Below, one piece after another: positions 15,575 through 43,001 of a stretch of DNA of 64,000 nt. The notes below the pieces were generated by a model. The model had not been told where the DNA came from and did no database searches. It saw nothing but the letters and a program-made list of their open reading frames with translations. The stretch lies in IMG/VR virus record IMGVR_UViG_637000270_000013; one strand, given 5' to 3'. The position numbers and the translations under genes were made by a program. Every line of letters starts with the position of its first letter. The first letter of the stretch is position 1. The stretch comes from a virus.

Positions 15575-15625
15575 CAGCATTGCAATTAATATTTGCAATT
15601 TAAATTTATATCTGTAATCATCTCA
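15575..15625. promoter_or_regulatory. pR/pRM operator region
   Basis: Repeated TTGCAATT (15580, 15593); TGCAATTT(T)AAATTTA shared with the pL region; TTGCAA-17 nt-AATCAT with a TG extension. Confidence 0.5.
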
Positions 15626-20767: not shown

Positions 20768-20800
20768 AATTTAACAAATGTATGAGTAAGGTAATGATTT

Positions 20801-21004: not shown

Positions 21005-21097
21005 ATGTAAACTATTATCTCTGACGCTCAATCGCGGCACCGCAACTTGCAGCAACTATAAATTTACCAGCATTCGAAATCTCAAGGAAACTGTATC

Positions 21098-21694: not shown

Positions 21695-21730
21695 AGATAA
21701 TTTGGGGTTGGGCGTGGGTTGTTGAGAAGG

Positions 21731-22126: not shown

Positions 22127-22210
22127 GTGCGTATCCTCTTGGTGATGCAGGCAGTATAGCTGTCAGGGGCGTGGCAAGGCAACTTTGCGCCAACGATGCC
22201 ACAGAGAATT

Positions 22211-22219
22211 TGCTATAAT
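22211..22219 (+). promoter_or_regulatory. Extended -10 promoter upstream of the structured leader and HTH gene
   Basis: TG-C-TATAAT, a perfect consensus. Confidence 0.6.
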
Positions 22220-22417
22220 CACCACGCCAGCCTGAACAACTGGCCTCCCTAATCCAACTGCTGTGCCGTCCAACCCAGGGGTTAAGATGGCGCAGACGGC
22301 ATATCAAAAAACGAGACCTACCACACTGACCACGGCGACAGCCGAGGCCGGCGGCTTGTTGCAATCGATAAAAACACGCTCTCAGGGTCGCGCGCACGCG
22401 CGTTTTGGGGGGACACC

Positions 22418-22684
22418 GTGCCGGTAGTTGCAACGGTCAAAACCGACTGGTTTCGGGTGATAAACGACATTACCCGCGCCGGCATTCCGTTACAGGAAAT
22501 CGCCAGAGAGCTGGACGTGTCCAAGTCTGCGATTATTGGCTGGAAGCAGGGCGCGGCACCTAATCATCACACCGGCGAGGCACTGATTGATTTCTGGTGT
22601 TATGTCACGCATCGCCAGCGCACAGAGCTGCCCGTGCAGGTATCATCGCGGCGCTTTGTGTACGCCTGGCGCAACAAACGCTAG
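22418..22684 (+). CDS. Small HTH protein, candidate late-gene activator
   Basis: GIPLQEIARELDVSKSAIIGWKQG HTH; last gene before the structural operon. Confidence 0.7.
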   Translation: MPVVATVKTDWFRVINDITRAGIPLQEIARELDVSKSAIIGWKQGAAPNHHTGEALIDFWCYVTHRQRTELPVQVSSRRFVYAWRNKR

Positions 22685-22710
22685 CCCCCCTCTTCCGCAA
22701 CAGCGCATTT

Positions 22711-22744
22711 GGTCGGGATCCTGACCGGGTATCCCTTTCACACT
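22711..22744 (+). promoter_or_regulatory. Late-promoter motif copy 1 (head module)
   Basis: GGTCGGGATCCTGACC-12 nt-CACACT. Confidence 0.75.
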
Positions 22745-22775
22745 GGTGGCTCTATTATCGACAGGAGCCACGACA

Positions 22776-23201
22776 ATGGCACGAAAAAGAAAAGCCGTCG
22801 AAATCCCGGGGCAGGAGTCCACAACCGCCGCAGAGGTTGCTACAGACGAACAGGCGGGCAATGAAGCATTGCCTGAGGGTGTCGGCACTGCCGATGAGCA
22901 GACCGTGCAGCAGAGGGGTTCTGCACTGCCAGACAGCACCGCACAGGCTGAGCGTAACGCTATCCTGTCCACGCTTGACGAGCCGGCCGCAGCCATCATC
23001 ACCCGCTTTGAAGCCCTGGGCTTTACCGATATGGTCGAGCAGAAGCTAACCGATAATCTCTCTTTCCTCGAACTCGTTAAAAAGGCCACCACGGCAGCCG
23101 CCGCCGCGCCGCTTGGGGTTGTGACGAATGAAGAGGGTAAACGTCAGCCCGTACTGGGTAAGCCGATTTTAACGGAACACGGCTGGCACGTGCCGGGCTA
23201 A
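22776..23201 (+). CDS. Phage hypothetical protein, first late gene
   Basis: AGGAG RBS; 141 aa. Confidence 0.7.
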   Translation: MARKRKAVEIPGQESTTAAEVATDEQAGNEALPEGVGTADEQTVQQRGSALPDSTAQAERNAILSTLDEPAAAIITRFEALGFTDMVEQKLTDNLSFLELVKKATTAAAAAPLGVVTNEEGKRQPVLGKPILTEHGWHVPG

Positions 23202-23211
23202 GGAGAGCGTG

Positions 23212-23460
23212 ATGTGTGGAGGGAGTGCACCCCAGGTCGTACGAACGGATCCGCAGGCTGAAGCCAATGCGGCGGCAGACGCAGCGGCAAAGGCGGCGAA
23301 CGCAGCGGCAAAGGCGGCGAACGCAGATACCGCCGCGCGCAAGAAACGCAAGAAAAGCTCGTCTTTGCTGGCCAGTGGTGCAGAAGGGGCCGCGGACTCA
23401 GGCAGCTCTTTGTTGTCTTCGGGCGCGCAGCCTGCGCAGAAAAAGGCATTAGGGGCGTAA
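23212..23460 (+). CDS. Small Ala-rich virion-associated protein preceding the portal
   Basis: AGGAG RBS; MCGGSAP start; position typical of T7 gp7.3-like genes; contains a 21-bp tandem repeat at 23281-23322. Confidence 0.65.
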   Translation: MCGGSAPQVVRTDPQAEANAAADAAAKAANAAAKAANADTAARKKRKKSSSLLASGAEGAADSGSSLLSSGAQPAQKKALGA

Positions 23461-23463
23461 CGA

Positions 23464-25089
23464 ATGGATGAACTTGCCGTCAAGCTGATTACGCGTGCTG
23501 ATACGCTAAAATCCCACCGCCAGCGGCATGAAAGCGTCTGGCGCGAGTGCTACGACTACACCTATCCGTTGCGTGGCGCCGGCTTTTCGGCTGACGTGCT
23601 GGACGCACAGAGCGCCAAGTCGAAGGTGGCGAAGCTGCTGGACGGCACCGCCACCGACAGCGCCCGCATGCTGGCCTCGGCGCTTATGTCTGGCATGACG
23701 CCGGCGAATGCGCAATGGCTAAACCTTGATAGCGAATCGTTGCCGGATGACGCTAAAGCGTGGCTATCAGGCTGCGCGACTCTGGTTTGGGAAAATATTC
23801 ACGCAGCCAATTTTGACGCGGAAGGCTATGAGGCGAATCTTGACGTCGTGTGCGCGGGCTGGTTCGTGCTGTACATCGACGAGAACCGGGAGGAGGGCGG
23901 CTATATGTTCCAGCAGTGGCCGCTATCGCAATGCTACGTTGCGTCAACCCGCAAAGACGGCATTGTCGATACGATTTATCGCTGCTATCAGATGACCGCC
24001 GAGCAGGCCATCGCTGAGTTCGGAGAGGCGGGCGTCAGCGAGAAAATACGCCGTGCTGCCAAGGATAAGCCGGATGACAAGTTTGATTTCCTGCACGCCA
24101 TTTTCCCGCGTAAGAATTATGTAGTAAACGCCCGTTTGGCTAAGCATTTGCGCTTTGCCTCTTTTCACGTGGAGAGGCAAGGAAAGCGCATAGTGCGAGA
24201 ATCGGGTTACCACGAATTCCCCGTTTGCGTACCGCGCTGGATGAAAATCTCTGGCGGCGCGTACGGCATTGGCCCGGTATATGACGCGTTGCCAGACTGC
24301 AAGGAGCTGAACGAAACCAAACGCATGGAGAAGGCCGCGCAGGATTTGGCCATTTCGGGCATGTGGATTGCCGAGGATGACGGTGTCATCAATCCGTACT
24401 CCGTCAAGGTCGGCCCGCGCCGCATCATTGTGGCGAGCAGCGTGAACAGTATGAAGCCCTTGCTCACGGGGGCTGATTTTCATGTCGCGTTTACCGCAGA
24501 AGACCGCCTGCAGGCCAGCATTCGCAAAATCATGATGGCCGACCAGTTGCAGCCACAGGATGGCCCGGCGATGACCGCGACCGAAGTCCATGTCCGCGTG
24601 GCCCTGATCCGCCAACTGCTGGGGCCGGTCTACGGACGGTTTCAGGCTGAATACCTGCAACCGCTGGTTGAGCGCTGTTTCGGTATTGCCTTCCGCGCTG
24701 GCGTCTTCCCTGCTCCCCCGGACAGCATGCAAACCGCGCATTTTAATGTGCGCTATATCTCGCCGCTGGCCCGCGCACAGAAGCTGGAGGACGTGACTGC
24801 GATTGAGCGTCTTGGCGCGAACGTGGCGCAGCTCTCCCAGGTTAGCCCGGAGGTCGTAGACTTGGTGGACACCGATGAGGCCATGCGCGTGGTGGCCGAT
24901 GCGCTGGGTGTACCGGCTAAGGTGATCCGCTCGGCGGCGGATGTCACCAGCCTACGCGACCAGCGCGCCAAGGCTCAGCAGCAGCAAGCGCAACAGCAGC
25001 TGATGATGCAGGCCGGGCAGGAGGCAGCCAGCGCCGCCGGTCAGGCCGCGGGGAGCGCAATGGGCCAAAGATTGGCGGGGGGACAATGA
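23464..25089 (+). CDS. Portal (head-to-tail connector), BPP-1/T7-like
   Basis: 541 aa; VPRW...YGIGP, MTATEV..R...LGPVYGR.Q.EYL.PL and YISPLARAQK motifs. Confidence 0.93.
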   Translation: MDELAVKLITRADTLKSHRQRHESVWRECYDYTYPLRGAGFSADVLDAQSAKSKVAKLLDGTATDSARMLASALMSGMTPANAQWLNLDSESLPDDAKAWLSGCATLVWENIHAANFDAEGYEANLDVVCAGWFVLYIDENREEGGYMFQQWPLSQCYVASTRKDGIVDTIYRCYQMTAEQAIAEFGEAGVSEKIRRAAKDKPDDKFDFLHAIFPRKNYVVNARLAKHLRFASFHVERQGKRIVRESGYHEFPVCVPRWMKISGGAYGIGPVYDALPDCKELNETKRMEKAAQDLAISGMWIAEDDGVINPYSVKVGPRRIIVASSVNSMKPLLTGADFHVAFTAEDRLQASIRKIMMADQLQPQDGPAMTATEVHVRVALIRQLLGPVYGRFQAEYLQPLVERCFGIAFRAGVFPAPPDSMQTAHFNVRYISPLARAQKLEDVTAIERLGANVAQLSQVSPEVVDLVDTDEAMRVVADALGVPAKVIRSAADVTSLRDQRAKAQQQQAQQQLMMQAGQEAASAAGQAAGSAMGQRLAGGQ

Positions 25090-25313
25090 GAAAACCCGTG
25101 CTACCGGGCGATTACAAACGCCTGTTTGAAGAGACGGCGGGCGGTCCTGAAGTGCTGGCGGAATTAGCCCGGCGATTCGGGCGCGCCGTCTACGTGGAGG
25201 GTGGCCCTGAGGGCGACCGCGCAACGTGCTACAGAGCCGGGCAGCGTGCCGTGCTCGATTTCATTCTCATGAGAATTAACCAGGCTGACGGAGTCTACGA
25301 CGATGGCGATTGA
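25086..25313 (+). CDS. Bbp19-like protein
   Basis: YKRLFE...GPEVLAEL...T.Y..GQRAVLDFI pattern downstream of the portal. Confidence 0.7.
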   Translation: MRKPVLPGDYKRLFEETAGGPEVLAELARRFGRAVYVEGGPEGDRATCYRAGQRAVLDFILMRINQADGVYDDGD

Positions 25314-25578
25314 CATTGAACATACCGACAAGGGCGATAAGGTTATCGAAAAACCTGTCACAGTAAAAACCAGCACAGACCAGATAACGGATGCGTCCAC
25401 GACAGGGAAAGCACTGCTGACCGCGGGCAGCGCTGCGAATGCCCGCACCACGCTGGAAATAGTCACCGGTGCAGCGATTGCTGATCTTGCTGCGGGTGCT
25501 GACGTTGCAAAAATCGTCACCACGGTTAACGCCATTCTGGCCAGTTTACGTACCGCAAAAATTATCGCTTCAAGCTGA
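25303..25578 (+). CDS. Probable head fibre/decoration protein
   Basis: ITDASTTGKALLTA and AAIADL...IVTTVNAILASLR helical motifs. Confidence 0.5.
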   Translation: MAIDIEHTDKGDKVIEKPVTVKTSTDQITDASTTGKALLTAGSAANARTTLEIVTGAAIADLAAGADVAKIVTTVNAILASLRTAKIIASS

Positions 25579-25590
25579 GGGTTTTAAACC

Positions 25591-26406
25591 ATGTGGAAAT
25601 CTAAACACTTATTCCTGCACGCCGATGCTGGCGAGGACGCGGGGGGCAACGGTGGCGACGGATCTGTTAATCCTGATGCGGGTCATTCTTTGCTTGGCAC
25701 CGGCGCACAGGCGCCAGCGGACGAGGTGGATTGGGTACCGGAAAAATTCCGCGTTATGGACGATGACGGCAAGCTTAACGTGGAAAGCTCTGCGCGCAAA
25801 CTGGCGGAGTCTTATACGCATCTTGAGAAGCGTTTAGGTCACGGTGATGCCCCGCCGAAGTCCGTTGATGACTACGCGCCGAAGGTAGACGCCGAGGGGT
25901 TTCAATGGGATGAATTCAAAGCCGATCCTGAAATGCAGGGCTTTCTCAAAGCCGCTCACGCCAGGGGCATCACGAATGACCAAATGGGCTTTATTCTAGG
26001 CGAGTACCTGCAACGTGCCCCGGCGTTAGTGAACGGTGCGGCCGAGCTGGATGCGGACGCCGCGGGGACACAGTTACGCGCGGTGTGGCAATCTGACGCT
26101 GAATTTAACAAAAACATCGGGCTGGCCTACCGTGCGTTTCATGCGCTGGCCGATGAAGGCGACAAAGATCGCCTGGATGATATCGGCAATAATCCGCTGG
26201 TTATCCGCCTGCTGGCGAAAGTGGGGGCGGAGATGCAGGAGGATACGCCGGCGGGGGCGGACGCTAACCCGACGGCGCAGCAAGTCATCCGTGACCTGAT
26301 GAAGTCGGAAGCCTATGCCGACCCGAAACATGCTGATCATGATCGTGTCGCCGCCCAGATACGAGCATTCTACCAGAAGACGTACGGCACACATTCTGTC
26401 GCCTGA
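25591..26406 (+). CDS. Capsid scaffolding/assembly protein
   Basis: VPEKF...KLAESYTHLEKRLG...Y.DPKH.DH motifs; lies between portal and capsid genes. Confidence 0.8.
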   Translation: MWKSKHLFLHADAGEDAGGNGGDGSVNPDAGHSLLGTGAQAPADEVDWVPEKFRVMDDDGKLNVESSARKLAESYTHLEKRLGHGDAPPKSVDDYAPKVDAEGFQWDEFKADPEMQGFLKAAHARGITNDQMGFILGEYLQRAPALVNGAAELDADAAGTQLRAVWQSDAEFNKNIGLAYRAFHALADEGDKDRLDDIGNNPLVIRLLAKVGAEMQEDTPAGADANPTAQQVIRDLMKSEAYADPKHADHDRVAAQIRAFYQKTYGTHSVA

Positions 26407-26446
26407 CCGTCAACAGGCCGGCCGCGTGGCTGGCCTCGTTTCATTT

Positions 26447-26480
26447 GGTCGGGATCCTGACCGCACATCACACTCACAAT
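26447..26480 (+). promoter_or_regulatory. Late-promoter motif copy 2 (capsid)
   Basis: GGTCGGGATCCTGACC-12 nt-CACAAT. Confidence 0.75.
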
Positions 26481-26612
26481 CCTCACAAAGCAGCCCGGCT
26501 GGGTAGCCGGATACCTGATCCCCTCTGTCCGTCAGCGCCAACCGGGCAGCGTTGAAACGAGCCGGGAGACCGACACCTCGCAGGCGATTAATCACTATTC
26601 GGAGTGTGCATT

Positions 26613-27524
26613 ATGGCTTTTGATGCCAACAAGAACATGATCACCGCTGCGTTTGTGCAGCAGTTCCATGATTCGTTTGAAATTGCCTCGCAGCAAAAAG
26701 ACTCTCGCCTGCAGGCCGCCGTCACCGACCGAGGCCATATTACCGGGGCATCGTTCACCATCAACGATATGGGGACTATCGAGATGACCCAAATCACCAC
26801 GCGGTTCGGTGATACGGTCTGGGATGTCCCTGAAGCGGGAACGCGTAACGCCTTGATGGCGGACTACGGGGTCTTCGTGCCGGTGGAGAAGCGTGACCTG
26901 CGCAAACTGATTGCTGATCCGCAGGGGCCCTATTTACAGCTGACCCTGGCTGCCGCTAACCGCAAAAAGGACGACATTATTTATCGGGCGTTGCTCGATA
27001 CCGTTTTGCGCAAAACATCGGATACCGGTGCTTATGCGCCCGTCGCCCTGCCGACAACGCAAAAGATTGTCGCAGGCAAAACCGGCATGACCAAGGCCAA
27101 GCTGATTGCCGCCAAGGCGATGTTTCGCCGTAACGAGTGCGATGAACAGAACGGTGAGGAGTTGTATATCACTTACAACGCCGACATGTTGACGCAGATC
27201 CTCAGCGATACCACGTTGACCAGCGCCGACTTTATGGCGGTGAAGATGCTCCAGGAGGGCGCGGTGTCCGGTAACTGGCTGGGCTTTAAGTGGCTGGCGT
27301 ACGAAAAGTTGGATGAAGCGAAAGCAGGCGAGCCTACCGTCACCACCAAAACCGCCGCCGCCTGGTGTAAATCCGCGGTGCATTTGGGGACGGGCGCACA
27401 GTACAACGTTGATATCGGCCCGCGTCGCGATAAAAATAATACCATTCAGATTTCTGTCGATGCGTCTTATGGTGCCGGTCGGGCGAACGAAAAAAAAGTC
27501 GTCGCCATCGAGTTTGTCGCGTAA
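26613..27524 (+). CDS. Major capsid protein
   Basis: ITAAFVQQF...QQKDSRL start, FMAVKMLQEG...WLGFKW motif; follows the scaffold gene. Confidence 0.9.
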   Translation: MAFDANKNMITAAFVQQFHDSFEIASQQKDSRLQAAVTDRGHITGASFTINDMGTIEMTQITTRFGDTVWDVPEAGTRNALMADYGVFVPVEKRDLRKLIADPQGPYLQLTLAAANRKKDDIIYRALLDTVLRKTSDTGAYAPVALPTTQKIVAGKTGMTKAKLIAAKAMFRRNECDEQNGEELYITYNADMLTQILSDTTLTSADFMAVKMLQEGAVSGNWLGFKWLAYEKLDEAKAGEPTVTTKTAAAWCKSAVHLGTGAQYNVDIGPRRDKNNTIQISVDASYGAGRANEKKVVAIEFVA

Positions 27525-27539
27525 GCCGCCGGGATCTTT

Positions 27540-27560
27540 GCCGGGGGCTCCCCGGCCTTT
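27540..27560 (+). terminator. Hairpin terminator after the capsid gene
   Basis: GCCGGGG-GCT-CCCCGGC followed by CTTT. Confidence 0.65.
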
Positions 27561-27578
27561 CTCATTTGAGGTGTCGCC

Positions 27579-28142
27579 ATGAGTTCGAGTGTATCTATCT
27601 GCTCTAACGCGTTGCTGGCGCTGGGGGCGCATCCGATCAACAGTTTCGATGAGGCGACCCCGCACGCCAGACTCTGCGCCAATATTTACCCTTCTGTACG
27701 CAATAACCTGCTGCGCGCCCATCCGTGGCACTGCGCCATTAAACGCGTCGTGCTCTCTCCCGTCAGTACCGCCCCCGCTTTCGGTTTTGGCTACCAGTTT
27801 CCCCTTCCGGCGGATCTTATCCGGGTGTTGTCGGTGGGTGAACGGTATGACGATATCCCGTATCGCATTGAGGGAAAACGCCTGTTGGCGAACGTACAGG
27901 AGGCCCGTCTGCGCTATATCTTTCGCAGTGAGGATGAATCAACCTGGGACGTGGCATTGGTCAACGTCGCCGAAGTGACGATGCAGGCAAAACTGGCCTA
28001 TGCCGTCACGGGATCTGCCAGCTTGCGCGACAGTCTGACACAGGAAGCCGCTTTTCTGCTCCAGCAGGCGAAATCCATCAATGGACAGGAAGATCCGCCG
28101 GAGAGGCTGGACGGTTTCCCCACCTTGGCGTCGAGGTTTTAA
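27579..28142 (+). CDS. Tail tubular protein A (gatekeeper)
   Basis: VSICSNALLALGA..I.SFDE...LLRAHPWHCAIKR motif. Confidence 0.88.
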   Translation: MSSSVSICSNALLALGAHPINSFDEATPHARLCANIYPSVRNNLLRAHPWHCAIKRVVLSPVSTAPAFGFGYQFPLPADLIRVLSVGERYDDIPYRIEGKRLLANVQEARLRYIFRSEDESTWDVALVNVAEVTMQAKLAYAVTGSASLRDSLTQEAAFLLQQAKSINGQEDPPERLDGFPTLASRF

Positions 28143-28143
28143 G

Positions 28144-30132
28144 ATGCGCGCCAATCTAATTAAAACCAATTTCACCGCCGGGGAAGTCTCTCCGCGCCTG
28201 ATGGGGCGCGTTGATATTATGCGTTATGCCAATGGCGCGAAAGCTATCCAAAATGGCGTTGTGGTGGTGCAGGGCGGCGTCATGCGCCGTCCAGGTACCC
28301 GCTTTGCGGCCGCCGCCAAATACAGCGATCGCCCGGCACGGCTTATCCCGTATGTTTTTAACCGTTCACAGGCGTATGTGTTGGAGTTTGGCGACGGTTA
28401 CCTGCGCGTTTACCAAAAAGGTAAACCGGTGGTGAACGCCAACAACACACCGTATGAAATTGCCAGCCCCTACAGCGCTGACCGGTTGCCCTCGGTGAAT
28501 TACGTTCAGGGCGCGGATACCATGTTCCTGGTGCATCCGGCGGTGAAGCCTTATCGGCTCCAGCGTCGTGGGCAAACGGACTGGGTGCTGGAGCCCGCAC
28601 CGTTTATCGTCGAGCCCTTTGATGAAATCCGCGAGACACCGAAAAAATGGTGTAGGCCCTCGGCAAAAGAATTCGTTGGCTCCGAGGTGACACTGACGCT
28701 CAGTGATGCGGACCCGGGTGAGAATAGAAATCCACCATTCACTGGTGCGGGATGGGTTGCCCAGGATGTGGGGGCCTATGTGCGCATCAATGGCGGCCTT
28801 GTCCTGATACAGCGCATCGACAGTGCGCAGGTGGCTGTGGGGACGCTTCGCTCGGATTTAAACGCCAAGCAGGCCGCGTCACCCGGCTCATGGACGCGAG
28901 AGGAGTCGGTCTGGACGGATAATTTGGGTTATCCGGGGGCGGTGACGTTATACCAGCAGCGTCTGGTGTTGGCCGGATCGCCCAAATATCCACAAACCAT
29001 CTGGTGGAGTGAAACCGGAGCCTATCTGTCGTTCGAGCTGGGGACCAAAGACGATGCGGCCATCAGCTTTACACTGTCTTCTGATCAGCTTAACCCGATC
29101 GTCCACCTGGCACAGATGAACACGCTGATTGCGCTGACCTACGGCGGTGAATTTACCATTACGTCGGGAAACGACGCGGCTATCACGCCGACCAATATTT
29201 CGGTCAAGAATCCCAGCCCGTATGGCTGTAACCGTATTCGTCCGCTGCGCGTCGGTACCGAAATTCTGTTTATCCAGCGGGCCGGGCGCAAGCTCTATGC
29301 CGTGGCGTACGATCCCGACAGCTTCGTGTCCTATGCTGCTAACGATTTGACGGTACTGGCGGAGCACATCACGGCGGGCGGCGTGCGCGATATGGCGTAC
29401 CAGCAGCAGCCGGACGGGCTTATCTGGCTGGTGCGTGAAGATGGTGTCGCCGTCACGGTGACGATGGATCGCGCTCAGGATGTGGTTGCCTGGTCACGCC
29501 AGATGACTGAGGGTGCTTTTGAGTCCGTGACGTCCATCCCCTCCGAGCGGGATGACGTGCTGTATGCACTGGTTCGCCGTCACATTAACGGGCACACCGT
29601 ACGCTACGTCGAAGTGTTCGATAACGTGCTGAATACCGATGCGGCCATCACCGGGCGTAGCGAGGCCGGTGCTACGACCTGGGCGGGGCTTCGGCACCTG
29701 GAGGGCAAAACGGTGGATGTGGTTGCCGATGGGTCGGTCATGCCGCGTGCCGTTGTCTCTGGCGGGCAGGTCACGCTGGCGCGTAAAGCGAAGACCGTAG
29801 AGATAGGTCTCCACTACGACACCACGATAGAGACATTAACGCCTGAAGTTGCCACGACGGAGGGGACAACGCAGAACGCGCGTAAGCGGACCAGCGAAGT
29901 CACGATGCGTTTTCTTGACACCATCGGCGCAGAATGCAACGGCCAGATCATCCCTTTTCGCACATTCGGCCCGAAGATTTTGGATAAACCGGCACCGCTG
30001 TTCACGGGGGATCACTATATGGGCAAACTGGGCTGGGAGCGTGGCGAGGATACCTTGATTGTGCAGCAGCGCCAGCCGTTGCCGTTTCACCTTCTGGCCA
30101 TTATCACCACGTTTACCAGCAACGGGGGCTAA
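28144..30132 (+). CDS. Tail tubular protein B (nozzle)
   Basis: NFTAGEVSPRLMGRVD, YPGAVTLYQQRLVLAG and AWSR motifs. Confidence 0.9.
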   Translation: MRANLIKTNFTAGEVSPRLMGRVDIMRYANGAKAIQNGVVVVQGGVMRRPGTRFAAAAKYSDRPARLIPYVFNRSQAYVLEFGDGYLRVYQKGKPVVNANNTPYEIASPYSADRLPSVNYVQGADTMFLVHPAVKPYRLQRRGQTDWVLEPAPFIVEPFDEIRETPKKWCRPSAKEFVGSEVTLTLSDADPGENRNPPFTGAGWVAQDVGAYVRINGGLVLIQRIDSAQVAVGTLRSDLNAKQAASPGSWTREESVWTDNLGYPGAVTLYQQRLVLAGSPKYPQTIWWSETGAYLSFELGTKDDAAISFTLSSDQLNPIVHLAQMNTLIALTYGGEFTITSGNDAAITPTNISVKNPSPYGCNRIRPLRVGTEILFIQRAGRKLYAVAYDPDSFVSYAANDLTVLAEHITAGGVRDMAYQQQPDGLIWLVREDGVAVTVTMDRAQDVVAWSRQMTEGAFESVTSIPSERDDVLYALVRRHINGHTVRYVEVFDNVLNTDAAITGRSEAGATTWAGLRHLEGKTVDVVADGSVMPRAVVSGGQVTLARKAKTVEIGLHYDTTIETLTPEVATTEGTTQNARKRTSEVTMRFLDTIGAECNGQIIPFRTFGPKILDKPAPLFTGDHYMGKLGWERGEDTLIVQQRQPLPFHLLAIITTFTSNGG

Positions 30133-30134
30133 CC

Positions 30135-30584
30135 ATGATCCGAACGGCAACACGAAACGATATCCCGGCGTTAATTGCGCTGGGGGCCAGCATGTACCAG
30201 GAATCACGCTACGCGGAAAACTCGCCGTTTGACGCGCTAAAATGCGCTGATTTGGCCGATCACCTTATCAGCGCCGATGCCGGTTGCGTTCTGGTGGCAG
30301 AGCACAACGGGCAGATCATCGGCTGGCTGGCCGGTGGCATTGGGGAGCAATGGTTTTCGCGCCAGTTGATGGCGTTTGAGTACGGCGTCTTCATTTCCCC
30401 TCACCATCGTGGCGGGTCGGCCGGTGCACGGTTGGTCAAATCCTTTATGGCCTGGGCGAAAGAGCACGGCGCCGCGGTGATCAATATGGGCATTACCACG
30501 GGGGTGCACGAGGAACGCACCGGCGAATTATATTCACGGCTTGGCTTGTCACGCACCGGGCTGCTTTATTCGATGGAGGTGTGA
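30135..30584 (+). CDS. GNAT-fold protein (T7 gp13/Bbp13-like)
   Basis: MIRTAT..DIPALI...FISPHHRGG..GARLV GNAT pattern; position after the nozzle gene. Confidence 0.75.
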   Translation: MIRTATRNDIPALIALGASMYQESRYAENSPFDALKCADLADHLISADAGCVLVAEHNGQIIGWLAGGIGEQWFSRQLMAFEYGVFISPHHRGGSAGARLVKSFMAWAKEHGAAVINMGITTGVHEERTGELYSRLGLSRTGLLYSMEV

Positions 30585-30585
30585 G

Positions 30586-31098
30586 ATGTGTACAGGCGTC
30601 GAGATTGCGCTGGTTGCATCGTCGGTATTGGCGGCAGGCGGTGCCGTCGTGCAGGGGCAGCAACAGCAGAAGATGGCGAATTATCAGGCCGCGCAGGCTG
30701 AGGCAGACGCTGATGCGGCTAAAGCGGCGGCAAAGGTGCAGGCGGAAAAAATCCGTAAGGCGGGTCAGCATCAGGCGGCGCAGGCGAATGCTGCACTGGC
30801 TGCCTCCGGGGTAGAAACCGGGGAGGGTACTGCTCTACGCATCACCTCGGGCATTACCGGCGATGCGGAAGAGGATGCCTACACCACGATAGTAAACGGC
30901 ATGAACACCAGCGCACGCTACAGGGCGCAGGCGCAAGCTGACCGCATTAGCGGCAGCAATGCGGCATCAGCGGGATATATCAATGCCGGCAGCGCGTTAT
31001 TACAGGGAGGGGCAAAGGCTTACTCAGGCTGGAAGAAAGCTAACCCGACGACAGACGCCGCTTCAAGTAACCTTTTCGCGAATATGGGGATCCGCTGA
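30586..31098 (+). CDS. Internal virion (ejection) protein, gp14-like
   Basis: Hydrophobic N-terminus followed by Ala/Gln-rich coiled coil. Confidence 0.75.
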   Translation: MCTGVEIALVASSVLAAGGAVVQGQQQQKMANYQAAQAEADADAAKAAAKVQAEKIRKAGQHQAAQANAALAASGVETGEGTALRITSGITGDAEEDAYTTIVNGMNTSARYRAQAQADRISGSNAASAGYINAGSALLQGGAKAYSGWKKANPTTDAASSNLFANMGIR

Positions 31099-35098: not shown

Positions 35099-35099
35099 A

Positions 35100-37574
35100 A
35101 TGCGACAGGAATGTATACAGGCGATCACCGCGGCGTCGAAACGCACGTTGACCTCAGCAGAGATCCAGGGGATTGAAGATCGCATCGTGAAAAATATGCG
35201 CCATTTGGCGCGTAACGACCCGACATCATGGCGAAGTTTAAGCGAGTCAGAGCGGATGCAGCGCGCGGGACACATGGCGGCGGAAGCGTTAGAGCGCGAG
35301 GCCACGCTGAAAAAGCGGCGGGTGGCGCTGACGATAGCGGCGCGCCAGCGGTTGGATAACTTTATCGCGGGCTATAAGGGAAAAGGCGGCAAGCTGGAAG
35401 CCCTGAACCGAACGATTGCATTTCACGCTGACGGCAAAGCCCCTTTTTTATCGGTGGAATCTCGCACCAAGGCGACGCGGGATTATGCCCTAAGCCAACT
35501 GGACGAATTATTCAGCGCCATTGACCCGCGTTTCTTTCAGCTTTTTGAGGATAAGCAGGGGATCAGCGATCTGGTCTACGAAATGCGCGGGCAGGATACC
35601 GGTAACGTGAGGGCAAAAAAGGGGGCTGAAGCGTGGAAAAACGTCTCCGAGCTGTTGCGCCGCCGCTTTAACGATGCCGGAGGCGATATCGGTCACCTGG
35701 AAGACTGGGGCATGCCGCAACACCATTCAATGGAAAAGGTAGGCAAAGCCACGCAATCCGACTGGGTCGGGTTTGTGATGGGGAAGCTTGATCGCAATAA
35801 GTACGTCAAAGAGAACGGCGAGCTGATGAGCGATAAGGACGTCGCCGATTTTCTTGGTCATGCTTACAAGACCATTGCCACTGGCGGCATGAACAAACTG
35901 GGTGATTCGGGGCGACGTCTGTCTGGCGCACGCGCGAATCGTGGTAACGCGGAAAGGCAAATTCATTTTAAAGACGCGGAAGGGTATTTAGCCTATCAGC
36001 AACGCTTCGGTGAAAAGTCGATGTGGGATATTCTGGTCAACCACCTGGACGGTATGAGTAAAGATATCGCGTTGGTGGAAACCTACGGCCCTAACCCCGA
36101 TCAGGTGTTCCGCTCCCTGCTTGACGAGCTGGCGGCTAAAACCGCTGACGAAACGCCATCACGAACTGGCAAGATAAAAAAACTGAAGAACAAAACAGAA
36201 GACCTTTACAACTTTATCGCCGGGAAAACGCAGCCGATCGCCAATCCTCATATTGCCCGCTGGGCGGATCACGTGCGCAACTGGCTCGTGGCGTCGCGGT
36301 TAGGCTCGGCACTGATTTCCTCGCTGTCTGATAACGGCACGATGTACCTGACGGCCAAGGTCAATAACTTGCCGATGGCACAGCTATTGCGCAATCAGCT
36401 TGCCGCGATGAACCCGGCGAATAAGGACGAGATCCGGCTTGCCCGTGGCGCGGGTCTGGCGATGGAAACCTTGTTGGGAAGCGTCAACCGCTGGGCGACC
36501 GATAATATGGGCCCTTCGCCCTCTCGCTGGGTTGCTAACGCGGTAATGCGGGCCAGTGGGCTATCCGCGTGGTCGGATGCGCATAAGCGGGCCTACGGCG
36601 TTACCATGATGGGCGGAATCGGTAACCTGGTACGTAAGCACGCCGACATTGCAAAAATTGCCGATGAGGACGCGCGCATACTCAAAAGCAAAGGTATCAG
36701 CTCGCAAGATTGGAAGATATGGAAGCTGGCCGAGCAAGAGGACTGGGGAAATGGCAACACAACGATGTTAACCCCGGAAAGTATTATGCGCATCCCGAAT
36801 GAGAAACTTGCAGCGTTGGGTAATGCCGAGCGGGTGAAATTTGAGGCGATGCGTAAATTGCTGGGTGCCGTCAGCGAGGAAGTGGATATGGCGGTGGTTA
36901 CGCCCGGTGCGCGCGAGCGCATGGTGACCGGCGCGGCGATGCAGCGCGGGGACTGGCGTGGCGAGCTTGTGCGTAGTGTTTTTCTCTTCAAATCTTTCCC
37001 CATCGCGGTCATGATGCGTCATTGGTCCCGTGCGTTGAATATGCCCTCTGCAGGCGGTCGTGCAGCGTATCTGGCGGCCTTTTTGGCGAGTACGACCGTA
37101 TTGGGCGCGATGTCCCAACAAATCAGCGAAGTTATTGCGGGACGAAATCCACGGGATATAACGGGCGATAAAGCCCTGCAATTTTGGGTCAATGCCTTTT
37201 TAAAGGGCGGCGGTGCGGGCTTGTATGGTGATTTTCTGCTTTCCGACCACACCCGGTATGGCTCTGGCGCATTGGCCTCCATGCTCGGGCCGGTGGCGGG
37301 GGTTGTTGATGACGCCATTAAACTGTTGCAGGGTATCCCGCTCAACGCGGTCGAGGGTAAGCCGGAACAAACCGGGGGCGATCTCGTCAAGTTTGCCAAA
37401 GGCATGATCCCAGGTCAAAACTTATGGTATACCAAGGCGGTGTTTGACCATATGGTCTTTAACCAGCTACAGGAAATCTTTTCACCGGGGTATTTACGCC
37501 GAATGGAAAAGCGTTCCCGGAAAGAGTTTAATCAAACCTACTGGTGGCGTCCGCAGGACAGGCTGCCGCAATAA
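35100..37574 (+). CDS. Large internal virion protein (gp16-like)
   Basis: About 825 aa; Gly-rich hydrophobic C-terminal region (KGGGAGLYGDFL). Confidence 0.75.
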   Translation: MRQECIQAITAASKRTLTSAEIQGIEDRIVKNMRHLARNDPTSWRSLSESERMQRAGHMAAEALEREATLKKRRVALTIAARQRLDNFIAGYKGKGGKLEALNRTIAFHADGKAPFLSVESRTKATRDYALSQLDELFSAIDPRFFQLFEDKQGISDLVYEMRGQDTGNVRAKKGAEAWKNVSELLRRRFNDAGGDIGHLEDWGMPQHHSMEKVGKATQSDWVGFVMGKLDRNKYVKENGELMSDKDVADFLGHAYKTIATGGMNKLGDSGRRLSGARANRGNAERQIHFKDAEGYLAYQQRFGEKSMWDILVNHLDGMSKDIALVETYGPNPDQVFRSLLDELAAKTADETPSRTGKIKKLKNKTEDLYNFIAGKTQPIANPHIARWADHVRNWLVASRLGSALISSLSDNGTMYLTAKVNNLPMAQLLRNQLAAMNPANKDEIRLARGAGLAMETLLGSVNRWATDNMGPSPSRWVANAVMRASGLSAWSDAHKRAYGVTMMGGIGNLVRKHADIAKIADEDARILKSKGISSQDWKIWKLAEQEDWGNGNTTMLTPESIMRIPNEKLAALGNAERVKFEAMRKLLGAVSEEVDMAVVTPGARERMVTGAAMQRGDWRGELVRSVFLFKSFPIAVMMRHWSRALNMPSAGGRAAYLAAFLASTTVLGAMSQQISEVIAGRNPRDITGDKALQFWVNAFLKGGGAGLYGDFLLSDHTRYGSGALASMLGPVAGVVDDAIKLLQGIPLNAVEGKPEQTGGDLVKFAKGMIPGQNLWYTKAVFDHMVFNQLQEIFSPGYLRRMEKRSRKEFNQTYWWRPQDRLPQ

Positions 37575-37591
37575 ACCCGCTCGCGCCAATC

Positions 37592-37625
37592 GGTCGGGAT
37601 CCTGACCTTTCAGCAAGTCCATGAT
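37592..37625 (+). promoter_or_regulatory. Late-promoter motif copy 3 (terminase)
   Basis: GGTCGGGATCCTGACC-12 nt-CATGAT. Confidence 0.75.
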
Positions 37626-37652
37626 AGCCCTGTGATAATCACGGGGCTTTTT
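37626..37652 (+). terminator. Terminator-like hairpin immediately before the small terminase ATG
   Basis: AGCCCTGTGA-TAA-TCACGGGGCT followed by TTTT. Confidence 0.6.
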
Positions 37653-37994
37653 ATGCATAACGATGAAAAAACACGCCTCAGCACGCTGAGTGATAAATTA
37701 ACGGATGTGGTGCTGGAAGAAGCCGATCCGGATAACTGGCCTGGTGCAGGAAAGGCCATTGACGCGCACACGCAACAGGAGCGCGGCGATCGCTACTGGT
37801 TCAAGAAGAACGCGGCGGCCACGCTGACGCTGTTAACCAAGGTGCAGACGCTTATAGGCCTGCAAATGCGTGGAGGAACGCCGGGAGGCCGCCCTGGCGA
37901 TGATGATGAGGCGTTTGAGCTGGATCAACAGGTTGCCAGTGCCGAGCGGGAAGCAGAGAAAATCATTGCGCGCATACAGAAAGGGAAGGCATGA
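37653..37994 (+). CDS. Terminase small subunit
   Basis: 113 aa directly upstream of, and overlapping, the large terminase; QQERGDRYW.KKNAAATL motif. Confidence 0.7.
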   Translation: MHNDEKTRLSTLSDKLTDVVLEEADPDNWPGAGKAIDAHTQQERGDRYWFKKNAAATLTLLTKVQTLIGLQMRGGTPGGRPGDDDEAFELDQQVASAEREAEKIIARIQKGKA

Positions 37995-39601
37995 CGTCTT
38001 TCCTCGCTTTCTTCCTGATATGGGCGGAGCGCATGGGATGGGATGTGCCCGACTGTCATTATCGCGCGTGCTACTGGCTTGAGCATCGCGGCAATCTGGC
38101 GGTGCTCCGTTGCTTTCGTGGCTTCGGTAAATCGACGATTCTGGCTGTTTATAATGCCTGGCGGTATTACCGCGATCGGCAGTACCGTATTCTTCACCAG
38201 TCCGAATCGGATTCCACCGCCCGTAAAACCAGTCGCGACACGCAGAATGTGCTGCGTAACCATCCGCTGACGAAAGGTATGTTGGCTAAAAGCATCGGTG
38301 CCGTTGAGCAATGGTCGGTTGAGGGGGCGCATGATAAGCGCAATGCCAGCATGTTCGCAAAGGGGATCCTTTCAAACGTCACCGGCGCGCGGGCGAACGA
38401 ATGCCAAAACGATGACGTGGAAGTCCCCGGCAATATTCAGACGCCAGAAGCCCGTGAAAAGCTGCGTTACCGTCTGAGTGAGCAGACGCATATTCTTATT
38501 CCCGGAGGCCGAAAATTGTTTATCGGTACACCCCATACCCACGACAGCCTGTACGACGAGATGGAAGCTGCTGGCGCGGATTGTCTGACGATTAAACTTT
38601 TTTCCCATGAGTATCGTATCGAGGCGAATGAGGCGGTCAGTCTGCGCTATACGCTGCCGTTTCGACCTGACTATGTCTTTATGGGGATCCACAATGGGGC
38701 GCGACTGCTGGCCGAGCACGTGGATTATCGGCTGACAGAAGACGGTATCGCGTTTGCGGCGCCACCCGAGACGATGATTGATTGTTACGCGGGCTGCCAA
38801 TGGCCCGAACGTTTCAACGCGGAGGAGCTTGAAACCCGGCGTAAGGATTGTCGCACGGTTAACGAATGGGACAGTCAATATCAGCTGCACAGTAAGCCCA
38901 TCGGGGAGGTACGTCTCGATCCTGACCGCATCCGTGAGTACAACGTGCAGCCGGAGATACGCTACGCAAACCGGGCGTGCTCGTTGTGGCTGGGGGCGAC
39001 GCAGATTGTGGGTGCCGTCGCCTGGTGGGACGTGGCAACCGGGAAAGTAAAAGCAGATGCCAGCGCCTTTTCCTTGATGCTGACCGATGCGCGCGGGCAT
39101 CTGTATTGGCAGGTGTGCCAGGCGCTAACCGGAGAATTGGCCGAATTCAATGATAACGACAAAATCACTGGCGGTCAGGTGGTGCAGATACGCGATATGG
39201 TGATCAAATACCAGATCCCCCGCGTGGTAGTGGAAGTCAACGGCCCCGGTAGCTTTGCCGGAAAACTGCTGCGCCAGGCATTAAAAGGTACCGGGTGCGG
39301 CGTCCAGGAAGAATTTACCGTTACCAACAAACAAAAGCGCATTCTTGATGCGTTTGAAGCGCCACTATCATCGCGTTTCCTGTGGGCGCACAGCGATGTG
39401 CTTGACGGTCCGATGTACGACCAGATGCGGGAGTTTAACCCTGCGCTTACCGATCAACCGGATGACTATATTGATTCCGGCGCCGGTGCCATCAGTCAAA
39501 CGCCGGTACGCATCGGTAAAGTAGTCGGGATCCCGACCACTCGGGTGCGCGAAAATTGGCAGTTAAGTGACGGCGAGCACAGCGTCGACGTCGATTACTA
39601 G
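37991..39601 (+). CDS. Terminase large subunit
   Basis: Walker A CFRGFGKST, NDDVE, IGTPH, nuclease WWDVA and QPDDYID motifs. Confidence 0.93.
   Translation: MTSFLAFFLIWAERMGWDVPDCHYRACYWLEHRGNLAVLRCFRGFGKSTILAVYNAWRYYRDRQYRILHQSESDSTARKTSRDTQNVLRNHPLTKGMLAKSIGAVEQWSVEGAHDKRNASMFAKGILSNVTGARANECQNDDVEVPGNIQTPEAREKLRYRLSEQTHILIPGGRKLFIGTPHTHDSLYDEMEAAGADCLTIKLFSHEYRIEANEAVSLRYTLPFRPDYVFMGIHNGARLLAEHVDYRLTEDGIAFAAPPETMIDCYAGCQWPERFNAEELETRRKDCRTVNEWDSQYQLHSKPIGEVRLDPDRIREYNVQPEIRYANRACSLWLGATQIVGAVAWWDVATGKVKADASAFSLMLTDARGHLYWQVCQALTGELAEFNDNDKITGGQVVQIRDMVIKYQIPRVVVEVNGPGSFAGKLLRQALKGTGCGVQEEFTVTNKQKRILDAFEAPLSSRFLWAHSDVLDGPMYDQMREFNPALTDQPDDYIDSGAGAISQTPVRIGKVVGIPTTRVRENWQLSDGEHSVDVDY
39523..39556 (+). 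promoter_or_regulatory. Late-promoter motif copy 4 (tail fibre), embedded in the terL 3' end
   Basis: AGTCGGGATCCCGACC-12 nt-GAAAAT. Confidence 0.65.
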
Positions 39602-39616
39602 CCAGGAGAGTGCGCC

Positions 39617-41722
39617 ATGTCGGTACCCAATCAGACGCCCTACGTTATTTACACTGCGAACGGGCTGACAACGGTTTTTCCGTTTGAATTTTATATTATC
39701 AGTGCCGCAGATCTTCAGGTCACGGTTAACGGCGTCGAAGTGAATACGGGGTATACCGTAACAGGCACGGGTAATCTGGGCGGTGGCAATGTGACATTCC
39801 TTACTCCACCCGCAACTGGCGCGACAGTGATGCTGGAGCGAGTGGTGCCAACGACCCGGTTGACGGATTATCAGGATAACGGCGACATGTTGGCTGATAC
39901 GGTTAACAAGGATTTTGACCGCCTCTGGATGGCGATCCAGCGTTCTTTTGTGCAGCTTGGTTTGGCGCTATGTCGTCCTCTAACAGGTTTACCCTTTAAC
40001 GCTGAAGGTTATCGCATCTCTCGGCTGGGCTCCCCCCTGGATAGGCACGATGCGGCCACGAAAAGCTATAGCGATACGCTTCACGAAAAGGGCAACCGAT
40101 ATGCTGATGAGTTGAATAGCAAAACCAATCAGCATGTTGAAGCGCTAAACCGTGCTACCAATGAACGAGTCGGCCAGCTTCACGCCGATATTTCAAATCG
40201 CGCCTTGCGTGCGCCTGAATCTACGATTTCCCCGATACCGGACGCAGCAACGCGGGCCGGGAAAATACTCTCCTTTGATGAAGATGGTGCGCCGATTGCG
40301 GCGTTGCCGCCCACAGGCACTGCCGCCGATGTGTTAACCGAGCTGGCGAAATCCGATGGCGCGACCCGAATTGGTAGTCAACAGCCGGGTGGTAAAAGAG
40401 AAACTGTGCAGCAGGCGTTGATAAGTAAAGCTGCCCGTGGTGTAAACAGCGATATTACTCATCTCAAAGGTATTGCGGCAGGGTTATCCATAGAAAAGAC
40501 CACCGCAACTAACGGTGTTGCAATTAATATTACTGGTAACGATGAAACTGAAGTCAGTTTTGGTGTGGAAAATGTCAATGGTGGTAGCGCCGTCTTTCAC
40601 AATTATGTCAAAGCGAGGAATGGTGTAGCAGCCGGGGACGGCCAACTGATAGGTGGATATGGCTCTCGTCCGTGGACAGGGAACAACTATACCGAGCATT
40701 CAAATGTCGCACTGCATTTTATACAGTCAGGCTCATGTAGCAACAGCAATCACGGCGGATATTTAAGGATTGTTGCGACCCCTCAAGACAGCACCATCGA
40801 TAAACGTGTTGATGTGGCCTCTTTTAACGGCTTTGGTGACGTGTGGATTGCACCATCGGGTCGTTATCAGTTTACTTACGGTAACGCTAACTGGAGAGAC
40901 CAAGAAGGTCGAGGGCTGTTTATCGCCAGAGAAGGTAATGTCGCAGAAGTTCAGTTAATCAGCGCAAAGAAAAATAATGAAGTATCTCAAGGAATTTTTC
41001 GTGGAATATGCCACGGCGGTACAATGTCGGATCCGATGGCTACGCCTGATGGAGTAAGTACATTTCTTGTTCTTGCTGGGCATAATGGAGAAGGGTTTGA
41101 AATAGCAAAAGCCGGCATTGAATTAAGATCTATGGGAGAATGGAGTACTTCATCTACCCCAGCCTGCATTTATTTTAGCACCTGTAATACTACGGAGAGG
41201 ATTCGTAATAACCGCTGGTGTATAACTGGGCGAGGGGATTTTGTTCCGATTGGTGACAATGCTTACACCGTAGGTAATCAGAATAATCGTATCTCTGCAA
41301 TTTACGCGGCTAACGGTACCATTCAAACCTCTGATGAACGTGAGAAAACAAAGGTGCGCGGTTTTAATAAAAATGAACTTGCCGCTGCAAAATCCTTAGC
41401 TGAAGAAATCGGTTTTTACCGCTGGATAGGAAAATATAAAGAGGAGGGAGAGTCTGCCAGAGAACATTGCGGTATGACAGTACAGAGAGCTATTGAAATC
41501 ATGGTTCAGCATCAACTTAATCCGTTTCACTATGGTTTTATCTGCTATGATTGTTGGGATGAAAAAGAAGTTATCACGCATTATGATGAGTTTGATAAGC
41601 CAGTCAGTGAGAAGAGAGCATCGGGAGATCGCTATAGCTTTCGGCATGACCAGCTTGCACTATTCATTGTTCGTGGACTAGAGGCTCGTATCGATGCTCT
41701 GGAATCACAAATTAAAGTTTAG
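39617..41722 (+). CDS. Tail fibre/spike with C-terminal intramolecular chaperone (peptidase S74)
   Basis: T7-type attachment N-terminus (TTVFPFEF...DFDRLWMAIQ); TIQTSDEREK autocleavage motif near 41330. Confidence 0.9.
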   Translation: MSVPNQTPYVIYTANGLTTVFPFEFYIISAADLQVTVNGVEVNTGYTVTGTGNLGGGNVTFLTPPATGATVMLERVVPTTRLTDYQDNGDMLADTVNKDFDRLWMAIQRSFVQLGLALCRPLTGLPFNAEGYRISRLGSPLDRHDAATKSYSDTLHEKGNRYADELNSKTNQHVEALNRATNERVGQLHADISNRALRAPESTISPIPDAATRAGKILSFDEDGAPIAALPPTGTAADVLTELAKSDGATRIGSQQPGGKRETVQQALISKAARGVNSDITHLKGIAAGLSIEKTTATNGVAINITGNDETEVSFGVENVNGGSAVFHNYVKARNGVAAGDGQLIGGYGSRPWTGNNYTEHSNVALHFIQSGSCSNSNHGGYLRIVATPQDSTIDKRVDVASFNGFGDVWIAPSGRYQFTYGNANWRDQEGRGLFIAREGNVAEVQLISAKKNNEVSQGIFRGICHGGTMSDPMATPDGVSTFLVLAGHNGEGFEIAKAGIELRSMGEWSTSSTPACIYFSTCNTTERIRNNRWCITGRGDFVPIGDNAYTVGNQNNRISAIYAANGTIQTSDEREKTKVRGFNKNELAAAKSLAEEIGFYRWIGKYKEEGESAREHCGMTVQRAIEIMVQHQLNPFHYGFICYDCWDEKEVITHYDEFDKPVSEKRASGDRYSFRHDQLALFIVRGLEARIDALESQIKV

Positions 41723-41729
41723 CAAAACA

Positions 41730-42809
41730 TCACAAATTGGCTCGTGCTCTTATTAAATCTCTAATTTTAGATATTGGTCTATCTATAAGTAATATTGAGA
41801 GTAGTCCCCAAATTACAGATAGACCATATCCAATAAAAAATATTATCCATCCGCGATTTTCCGTTGGTTGTCCACTTATTTGCCATACTACAAGACCTAT
41901 AAAAAAATGACAAAGAAATATAGGGTATGAAAGATCTCCCAAGAACTTAGCTAGTTTTGAAATTTTGCCTGATAACTTTGTTCCATGCAATGCTACAACT
42001 GCTCCAAAAGCAATGATGTTGTTGAAATAGTAGTGAAATGATGCGAATGCCTCGTTACGCTGCCATCCAATATACCAATTGGTAATAAACAAAAATGAGA
42101 AAAGGAAAAGAGAAAATATTTGATATCGCGTAGGTTTGATTAAATCTTTATTTTTCTTTTCTATTGAATGGGATAAAAAGTAACCTAGAGCACCTATGCT
42201 AAAGGGAAGCATTGCGGCTAAAAAGGGAGAATAGGTTGTTATGATGTTGTCGCTAACACTTATTGCATACCAATGATAAATGCTGCTAGCAAGTATTGCT
42301 AATAATGTCCTTTTATATCCTCTAGCCACAAAGCACCAAAGTAAAAAATAGCATGTAATTTCGACAGCAACGGACCATGATGATGTTACTGCCCTGAACA
42401 TGTATCCTTTAAAATCTAAAAATTCAGGAGTTGCAAAAGCATAAAAAGGTGAAATAATAATTTTATCAGATAAAAAAGCCCAAGGTATTAACAATAAGTT
42501 AGCAAGGAACTCTTTAACTGATATATGAAGGCCATAGGACAGATGAAAATCTTTAGGATTATCAATAAAATAAATACATATAATGCCTGTGATGCAGGCA
42601 AGCCAGTAGGAAGGGAAAAGGCGTAAGAATCTATTTGTTGTAAATGGTATCAACTTGAAATTGTAAGTTGTATTAAGAATCATGGTAATCAGATAACCGC
42701 TTATGACATAAAAACAATTTACGGCATACAGTCCAAAATTAGGGAATTTTCCTGATAAATGAAATAAAATTACACACGTCGCAAGAAAAAATCTAATAAT
42801 ACCTAGCAT
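41730..42809 (-). CDS. Acyltransferase-3 (OafA/Oac-like) membrane O-acyltransferase moron
   Basis: RFFLA..VILFH, FYVISGYLI, NRFLRLFPSY, WSVAVEITCY and GDLSYPIFLCH motifs; multi-TM, AT-rich, antisense to the late genes. Confidence 0.9.
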   Translation of the reverse strand: MLGIIRFFLATCVILFHLSGKFPNFGLYAVNCFYVISGYLITMILNTTYNFKLIPFTTNRFLRLFPSYWLACITGIICIYFIDNPKDFHLSYGLHISVKEFLANLLLIPWAFLSDKIIISPFYAFATPEFLDFKGYMFRAVTSSWSVAVEITCYFLLWCFVARGYKRTLLAILASSIYHWYAISVSDNIITTYSPFLAAMLPFSIGALGYFLSHSIEKKNKDLIKPTRYQIFSLFLFSFLFITNWYIGWQRNEAFASFHYYFNNIIAFGAVVALHGTKLSGKISKLAKFLGDLSYPIFLCHFFIGLVVWQISGQPTENRGWIIFFIGYGLSVIWGLLSILLIDRPISKIRDLIRARANL

Positions 42810-42967
42810 ATTTTTTACCGTATAGAAATACTCTTACTTTACATTATGGCACGAATTAACACACAGCAGCAATACCACCACGCCACCATAGTTGATACTT
42901 TTCCTTTTTATGTTTATATAAAAATATGTTAGTAAACCTAGTCCCTAAAAATACCATCGAGTTTTAT

Positions 42968-43001
42968 AGTCAGGATCCCGACCGCTCGCACACCTTACTC
43001 T
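42968..43001 (+). promoter_or_regulatory. Late-promoter motif copy 5 (lysis)
   Basis: AGTCAGGATCCCGACC-12 nt-TACTCT. Confidence 0.75.

Follow-up and report, generated by a model that had tools for sequence, protein, structure and literature searches.

Five palindromic sites ahead of the late-gene blocks of a temperate podophage: candidate activator-dependent promoters and a putative XRE-type activator

The viral DNA analyzed here (IMG/VR record IMGVR_UViG_637000270_000013; a stretch of 64,000 nucleotides that we refer to as the window) carries a temperate podophage prophage in which PHROG and Pfam scans identify a lambdoid early region and morphogenesis genes of the YeP4/BPP-1 (T7-like) type. 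Our subject is a 16-bp palindrome, RGTCRGGATCCYGACC, which occurs at positions 22711, 26447, 37592, 39523 and 42968, always on the late-gene strand, together with the gene for an 88-amino-acid helix–turn–helix (HTH) protein that lies just upstream of the first copy. The late block runs from the gene for a 151-amino-acid protein through portal, Bbp19-like, scaffold/protease, capsid, tail tube A/B, acetyltransferase and internal virion protein genes to the terS-like, terL and tail spike genes; 3′ of the tail spike come an opposite-strand acyltransferase gene and then holin, endolysin and Rz. The features that enter the argument are listed below, with P1 to P5 denoting the candidate promoters.

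22211–22219, + strand: extended −10-like sequence TGcTATAAT, ~200 nt 5′ of the HTH start; a candidate from reading the sequence and from comparison with a second prophage
22418–22684, + strand: gene for the 88-amino-acid XRE/Cro-type HTH protein (phrog_16553; PHROG E = 8.5e-45), the candidate late activator
22707–22744, + strand: candidate P1, with ATTT, dyad 22711–22726, 12-nt spacer and CACACT 22739–22744; 5′ of the 151-amino-acid gene (ATG 22776) and the portal block; orthologous sites in relatives
26415–26446, + strand: terminator-like hairpin (26415–26436) and T-tract, 3′ of the scaffold/protease gene; its end falls in the ATTT that flanks P2
26443–26480, + strand: candidate P2, with ATTT, dyad 26447–26462, 12-nt spacer and CACAAT 26475–26480; 5′ of the capsid leader and the capsid-to-internal-virion-protein block
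37592–37625, + strand: candidate P3, with dyad 37592–37607, 12-nt spacer and CATGAT 37620–37625; 5′ of terS-like and terL
37626–37652, + strand: 10-bp hairpin and T-run, beginning directly past the P3 hexamer and ending at the terS ATG
37991–39601: terL open reading frame (ORF)
39523–39556, + strand: candidate P4, with dyad 39523–39538 within the terL 3′ end, 12-nt spacer and GAAAAT 39551–39556; 5′ of the tail spike
39617: start of the tail spike gene
42968–43001, + strand: candidate P5, with dyad 42968–42983, 12-nt spacer and TACTCT 42996–43001; 5′ of holin, endolysin and Rz

A first-pass annotation of this DNA had reported the five copies, a hexamer with A2 and T6 located 12 nt past each of them, their placement before head, capsid, terminase, tail-fibre and lysis modules, and the embedding of one copy in terL. 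We recovered all five copies, compared with none in 100 dinucleotide-preserving shuffles of the window, and the 12-nt spacing is exact at every one. The gene assignments hold in the PHROG scan, and the fourth copy does lie inside the terL frame. The HTH ORF is present where the annotation had placed it, but it ends 26 nt rather than 27 nt before the first copy. Allowing up to three mismatches adds just two poor matches in the window. In the complete genome of 4.29 Mb and four replicons, the only occurrences of the motif are those in this prophage, those in a second prophage and one stray copy with a single mismatch.

Each dyad is built from RGTCRG half-sites around a 4-bp centre. The palindrome had been proposed to cover the place of a −35 box and, in agreement with this, the −35 position at the sites reads GGATCC, GGATTC or GGAAAC, with nothing resembling a −35 sequence. 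A consensus promoter scan detected no σ70 promoter at the sites; over positions 20700–27000 its sole σ70-like match on the + strand lies 5′ of the late genes. If transcription starts ~7 nt past the hexamer, the dyad would span approximately −40 to −25, with its centre near −32.5, and would thus occupy the −35 place. Alternative −10 hexamers ~26 nt downstream at P1 and P3 of the window were rejected; they are not kept in relatives.

The same signature recurs, at the five corresponding places, in the second prophage, in dozens of IMG/VR contigs and in the inducible Yersinia phage YeP4. Over 190 distinct contexts, its consensus is ATTT-RGTCRGGAWHCYGAMC-N12(11)-NANNNT. The sequence of the spacer is variable, whereas its length is retained together with A2 and T6 in the hexamer, as is the ATTT flank, on the upstream side only. 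For 25 sites the motif alone determines the orientation, and the spacer is 12 nt in 23 of these and 11 nt in two. We also collected 54 IMG/VR loci via the HTH protein; wherever they include enough downstream sequence, the motif lies between the HTH gene and the capsid gene, the exceptions being truncated or disrupted by an insertion sequence. Four near-complete related IMG/VR records contain exactly five sites each, all on the late-gene strand, and a fifth record that is 71% complete contains four. Almost the same dyad is found in many host genera.

Among the phages in the collection searched, the nearest cultured relatives are the inducible Yersinia podophages YeP4-6 (PMC6548840), with a capsid protein that is 84% identical; YeP4 has been grouped with BPP-1, BcepC6B and Xfas53 (PMC8579659). 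YeP4, whose HTH protein is 45% identical, carries RGTCRGGAAACCGAAC at four orthologous places, including the one within terL, and a window-type site before the lysis genes. The hexamers found 12 nt past the YeP4 sites are CACACT, TAGCCT, GACCAT, GACCAT and TAAAAT. The site within terL has the variant of the phage that carries it, in YeP4 GAAACCGAA, so selection acts on the DNA signal and not on the terL protein. In another relative (L092), P1 lies inside the 3′ coding end of the HTH gene (L092:10261–10276) and the next gene starts without a gap.

The second prophage of the same genome (C1:2877039–2894344, with the late module extending to 2894700) is near-identical and in reverse orientation, with an HTH gene of its own and five copies of the motif at orthologous places. 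It lacks the acyltransferase moron, and there is a 6-nt difference at the ribosome-binding region of the HTH gene. Homology between the two prophages starts at TTTGCTATAAT, 5′ of the HTH leader. Since homology begins at the −10 sequence of the HTH gene, the upstream control region is swapped between phages. In the second prophage, homology also starts ~6 nt 5′ of P5.

The dyad is missing from three phages whose capsids are more distantly related: Acinetobacter TPWB-05, Alcaligenes Piluca and E. coli vB_EcoM_APEC. TPWB-05 and Piluca provide no test of the link between the HTH gene and the sites because they contain just a distant 134-amino-acid HTH relative. In both phages (L085 and L086), CACCCAACAAACC followed by a hairpin and a T-run stands 5′ of four or five late gene blocks and apparently serves as another kind of late-control signal. 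When the TPWB-05, Piluca and vB_EcoM_APEC genomes were searched for repeats by brute force, the outcome was mostly noise.

Co-occurrence of the motif with the HTH gene, a check that the first-pass annotation had suggested, was scored in a family sample of 301 genomes, where at least three sites were counted as a cluster and E ≤ 1e-8 was used as the cut-off for an HTH homologue. Exactly nine genomes have site clusters, HTH homologues occur in these nine and in no others, and the remaining 292 have neither. Host genomes in the sample that lack the prophage contain at most stray single copies of the motif. When viral contigs were sampled by the motif first, the HTH gene was found upstream in 30 of 31 contigs (at P2-type sites in 19 of the 20 where the upstream sequence is long enough, and at P1-type sites in all 11), and the sole exception is a contig truncated inside the portal gene. 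The phages in question have unrelated early gene sets: that of the window phage is lambdoid, YeP4 has a T7-like DNA polymerase and primase, and L092 has a third set. Only the HTH gene, the 151-amino-acid gene, and the structural and lysis genes are common to the three, indicating that the HTH gene travels with the late module. The HTH gene is the only non-structural gene common to phages with unrelated early regions.

The AlphaFold2 model of the HTH protein (predicted local distance difference test score of 88) has a four-helix XRE/Cro-type fold flanked by an N-terminal and a C-terminal strand. Its best structural matches are restriction–modification (R-M) controller proteins, followed by other XRE proteins, with middling Z scores of 6–7.7 (VIA). 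Foldseek assigns a probability of ~1.0 to C.BclI, P22 c2, SinR and HipB, with E values of just ~0.03, and no match in the PDB reaches E ≤ 0.001. In Pfam the protein has only a sub-threshold match to HTH_23 and no similarity to Mor/C, Ogr_Delta or Q; it contains a single cysteine. The family comprises 833 representatives at E ≤ 0.001. The gene has a leader of ~200 nt (22211–22417) with an overlapping upstream ORF.

The prophage integration site adjoins tRNA-Leu, and the early genes are, in order, integrase, RecET, CI-like, cro/YdaS-like and YdaT-like, O/P-like replication, a Dam-family methylase, antirepressor, RusA and the 88-amino-acid HTH gene, two of which serve here as landmarks:

8112–9128: integrase gene (PHROG/Pfam)
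15134–15598: CI-like gene (PHROG/Pfam)

The annotation had found no lambda Q-like gene, and the domain scans agree: the Q families PF03589, PF06530 and PF06323 have no match inside the window or the second prophage, and many elsewhere in the same genome. For single-subunit RNA polymerases (PF00940) there is no match in the genome, YeP4 or two IMG/VR records, and the control genomes gave none either. Every ORF longer than 600 amino acids is structural, leaving no unassigned ORF large enough for a phage RNA polymerase. At the late end, the distal tail spike and the opposite-strand Acyl_transf_3 gene (39617–42809) form an AT-rich stretch, with a GC content of 0.43–0.45 compared with 0.55–0.59 for the core late genes, and this stretch is bracketed by P4 and P5.

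We consider it likely, from the architecture and conservation of the sites, that all five are activator-dependent late promoters. That they are promoters of the host σ70 polymerase with the 88-amino-acid HTH protein as their activator is a more specific proposal, to which we give somewhat better than even chances. The control would then be of a kind familiar from phages, exercised by a protein family that is undescribed. The host σ70 RNA polymerase would read all five promoters, and an XRE-type HTH dimer bound to the dyad would replace −35 recognition and recruit or stabilize the polymerase; binding, activation and the transcription starts are predictions made from the DNA. P1 would transcribe the 151-amino-acid, portal and scaffold genes up to the terminator at 26415; P2, the capsid through internal virion protein genes up to the hairpin at 37626; P3, terS and terL; P4, the tail spike; and P5, the lysis genes.

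Terminators border these proposed units. The hairpin following P3 is kept in nine relatives, where the alignment fold has nine pairs, three of them with compensatory changes. The P3 start is predicted to fall within the 5′ arm of this hairpin, so that read-through RNA arriving from upstream would be stopped, whereas RNA initiated at P3 would lack the 5′ arm and therefore escape. The capsid leader (26481–26625, ~145 nt) is unusually conserved across relatives and holds a hairpin, CAGCCCGG..GCCGGATACCTGA, as well as a dyad-like GCCGGGA(A/G)ACCGA box just 5′ of the ribosome-binding site.

A bolder version of this scheme, which we put forward as a speculation with a small chance of being right, is that the dyad-bound HTH dimer acts as a stand-in for σ70 region 4 at −35, in an 'appropriation' of the MotA type for which no co-factor is known. 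On this view the present layout, read by the host polymerase, would have replaced the dispersed promoters that a phage polymerase read in T7-like ancestors, and P3 would have been built inside a terminator, with one sequence ending one unit and starting the next.

Several observations weigh against late promoters activated by the HTH protein. The −10 hexamers are weak, with three or four of six matches, and a dyad centre near −32.5, as calculated from the assumed start, is unusual for a dimeric HTH activator; that of Mu C is at −43.5 (PMC2582627). The PHROG label of the HTH family is 'transcriptional repressor'. The extended −10 of the HTH gene looks constitutive, whereas the gene would have to be silent in the lysogen. 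The co-occurrence of the HTH gene with the sites is confounded by their physical linkage in one module, and there is no clean covariation between recognition helix and dyad, given that HTH proteins only 40–47% identical (G235 and L092) go with the same dyad; the centre variants GATC, GATT and GAAA are mixed within one phage. HTH homologues also occur in other contexts without site sets. These homologues are 50–55% identical: one lies beside a Q-type antiterminator in a lambdoid prophage (L090:9951–11047), with a 2-mismatch dyad 35 nt 5′ of the gene, and one lies beside the integrase of a P4-like island (L088:10001–10339). Finally, the region is represented in RNA contigs from four libraries of two studies; these assembled contigs bridge P1 and P2 and are uninformative with respect to starts, strand and level.

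The homologues without site sets and the lack of helix-to-site covariation, as well as the near-identity of the dyad across many host genera, would also be expected if the sites were late promoters but the dyad were read by a host protein or another phage product, with the HTH protein serving another role. We regard this as unlikely, though it fares best among the alternatives. No other regulator-like gene is common to the phages with unrelated early regions, the stray single copies seen at most in prophage-free hosts argue against a host regulon, and presence of the HTH gene matches that of the site clusters in nine of nine genomes, with neither in the other 292.

The position of the site within a promoter, the conserved terminator hairpin directly past the P3 hexamer and the occupation of the lambdoid Q position by the HTH family would suit a promoter-loaded antiterminator, for which the dyad would be an element like the Q-binding site. 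In such a system the polymerase would be modified at each promoter and read through terminators such as the hairpin after P3. The protein, however, has no similarity to any Q family, and a promoter-proximal terminator is found at P3 only. Promoters without a −35 sequence would need activation in any case, and with the predicted P3 start inside the hairpin arm antitermination would be unneeded. We consider this explanation improbable.

Equally improbable in our judgement is repression of late transcription, with the dyads as operators for the HTH protein or some other dimer. The PHROG label is in line with this, as are the predominance of repressors among XRE-fold relatives and the overlap of the site with the core promoter. 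There is, however, nothing strong to repress at promoters that lack a −35 sequence and match the −10 consensus at only three or four of six positions, and the dyad is kept in relatives whose immunity repressors differ.

A repeat that is always on the coding strand could also fold in late RNA into a hairpin with a 6-bp stem and a 4-nt loop, and could act in processing or stability or in the manner of a nut site. The loop would be GAAA at YeP4-type sites, and the late leaders are rich in conserved hairpins. We rejected this explanation, to which we assign very little probability, on the pairing statistics of the 190 sites. Positions 5 and 12 vary independently (G/C in 144, A/C in 27, G/T in 16 and A/T in three sites), with A5 accompanied by C12 in 27 of 30 cases, and in 40 of the 190 sites a position of the stem fails to pair on the transcribed strand. 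This pattern fits a degenerate symmetric RGTCRG half-site read by a dimer and not a selected RNA hairpin, which would in addition leave the fixed distance to the A2/T6 hexamer and the one-sided ATTT unexplained. Weakest of all, and scarcely credible, is the idea that the repeats are module-boundary or recombination sites, or methylation- or restriction-related sites (GGATCC, GATC), without a role in transcription: they do lie at module borders, homology with the second prophage does start right at P5 and the phage does encode a Dam-family methylase, but the centres are GATTC or GAAAC in relatives, one site is inside terL, and the strict strand bias and linked hexamer would be unexpected.

The methylase is an N6-adenine enzyme (PF05869) encoded at 19046–19579. 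All five dyads of the window phage and of its twin prophage have a central GATC, in place of the GATTC or GAAAC of most relatives, and binding at the GATC-centred dyads could be modulated by methylation.

The late module described here is common: many Enterobacterales genera have it in their prophages, and hundreds of viral contigs contain it. Within the phage collection searched, YeP4-6 alone represent it in culture, and their transcription programme is undescribed; the YeP4 paper makes no mention of promoters or transcription. The first-pass annotation knew of no such system in this phage group, and this is consistent with the searchable literature, in which none of five site variants is mentioned. 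If activation by the HTH protein is correct, a compact XRE-type protein family would join the known phage late activators, and the sites together with the protein would constitute a portable, apparently orthogonal promoter/activator pair. Late-gene units could be annotated directly from sequence, and the system would show how temperate phages without a phage RNA polymerase express T7-like morphogenesis modules.

The likeness to late control in other phages that the first-pass annotation had drawn, with Mu C and P2 Ogr, is upheld in that one small protein would serve several late promoters. Mu C acts on a dyad at dispersed late promoters that have a −10 hexamer without a −35, with the dyad centred at −43.5 (PMC2582627). 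The resemblance would extend to a small HTH activator working as a dimer and an imperfect dyad of 16 bp at several promoters of late genes (Plys, PI, PP and Pmom) read by the host polymerase, and Mor is similar as well. The HTH protein of the window phage is nevertheless unrelated to Mu C, with no Mor/C domain in Pfam and an XRE-type fold; the dyad centre would be closer to the start, and the five promoters belong to a podophage with T7-like morphogenesis genes. P2 Ogr and P4 Delta provide the example of one small phage protein that turns on several late promoters and is exploited by satellites, and an HTH homologue is likewise found in a P4-like island. Ogr and Delta are zinc-finger proteins that act from ~−55, whereas the 88-amino-acid protein has one cysteine and no Ogr_Delta match.

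Regarding position, the closer parallels are lambda CII (at pRE, pI and paQ), PhoB (at pho boxes) and T4 MotA (at middle promoters), which bind in place of the −35. As proposed for the window phage, the site takes the −35 place ~10–12 bp 5′ of the −10 hexamer, at promoters that are inactive alone. MotA needs the co-factor AsiA. The sites of these three proteins are direct repeats or a single box, in contrast to the inverted repeat found here, and the protein families differ. The R-M controller proteins (C.EcoT38IS, C.Kpn2I, C.AhdI and C.Esp1396I) are small XRE-type dimers that bind palindromic boxes in the −35 region and can activate, and they are the best structural matches of the HTH protein. 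At 13–14% identity and Z scores below 8, this match reflects the general fold only. Controller proteins autoregulate one operon and their box sequences differ; there is no R-M context here, and the HTH protein has extra N- and C-terminal strands.

The arrangement of the genes recalls two further systems. As with lambda Q and PR′-tR′, the regulator gene lies at the end of the early region, just 5′ of the late genes, but the window has no Q-family domain and five promoters rather than one. In T7, class III promoters are dispersed before the portal block, capsid, packaging and fibre genes, and there is a terminator near the capsid gene. The dispersal of promoters before similar gene blocks is shared with the window phage, whereas no single-subunit RNA polymerase was found here. 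The HTH protein is assigned to none of these families. In its logic the system follows Mu C or P2 Ogr, its geometry is closer to that of CII, PhoB and MotA, and the fold of its HTH protein is closest to that of the R-M controllers.

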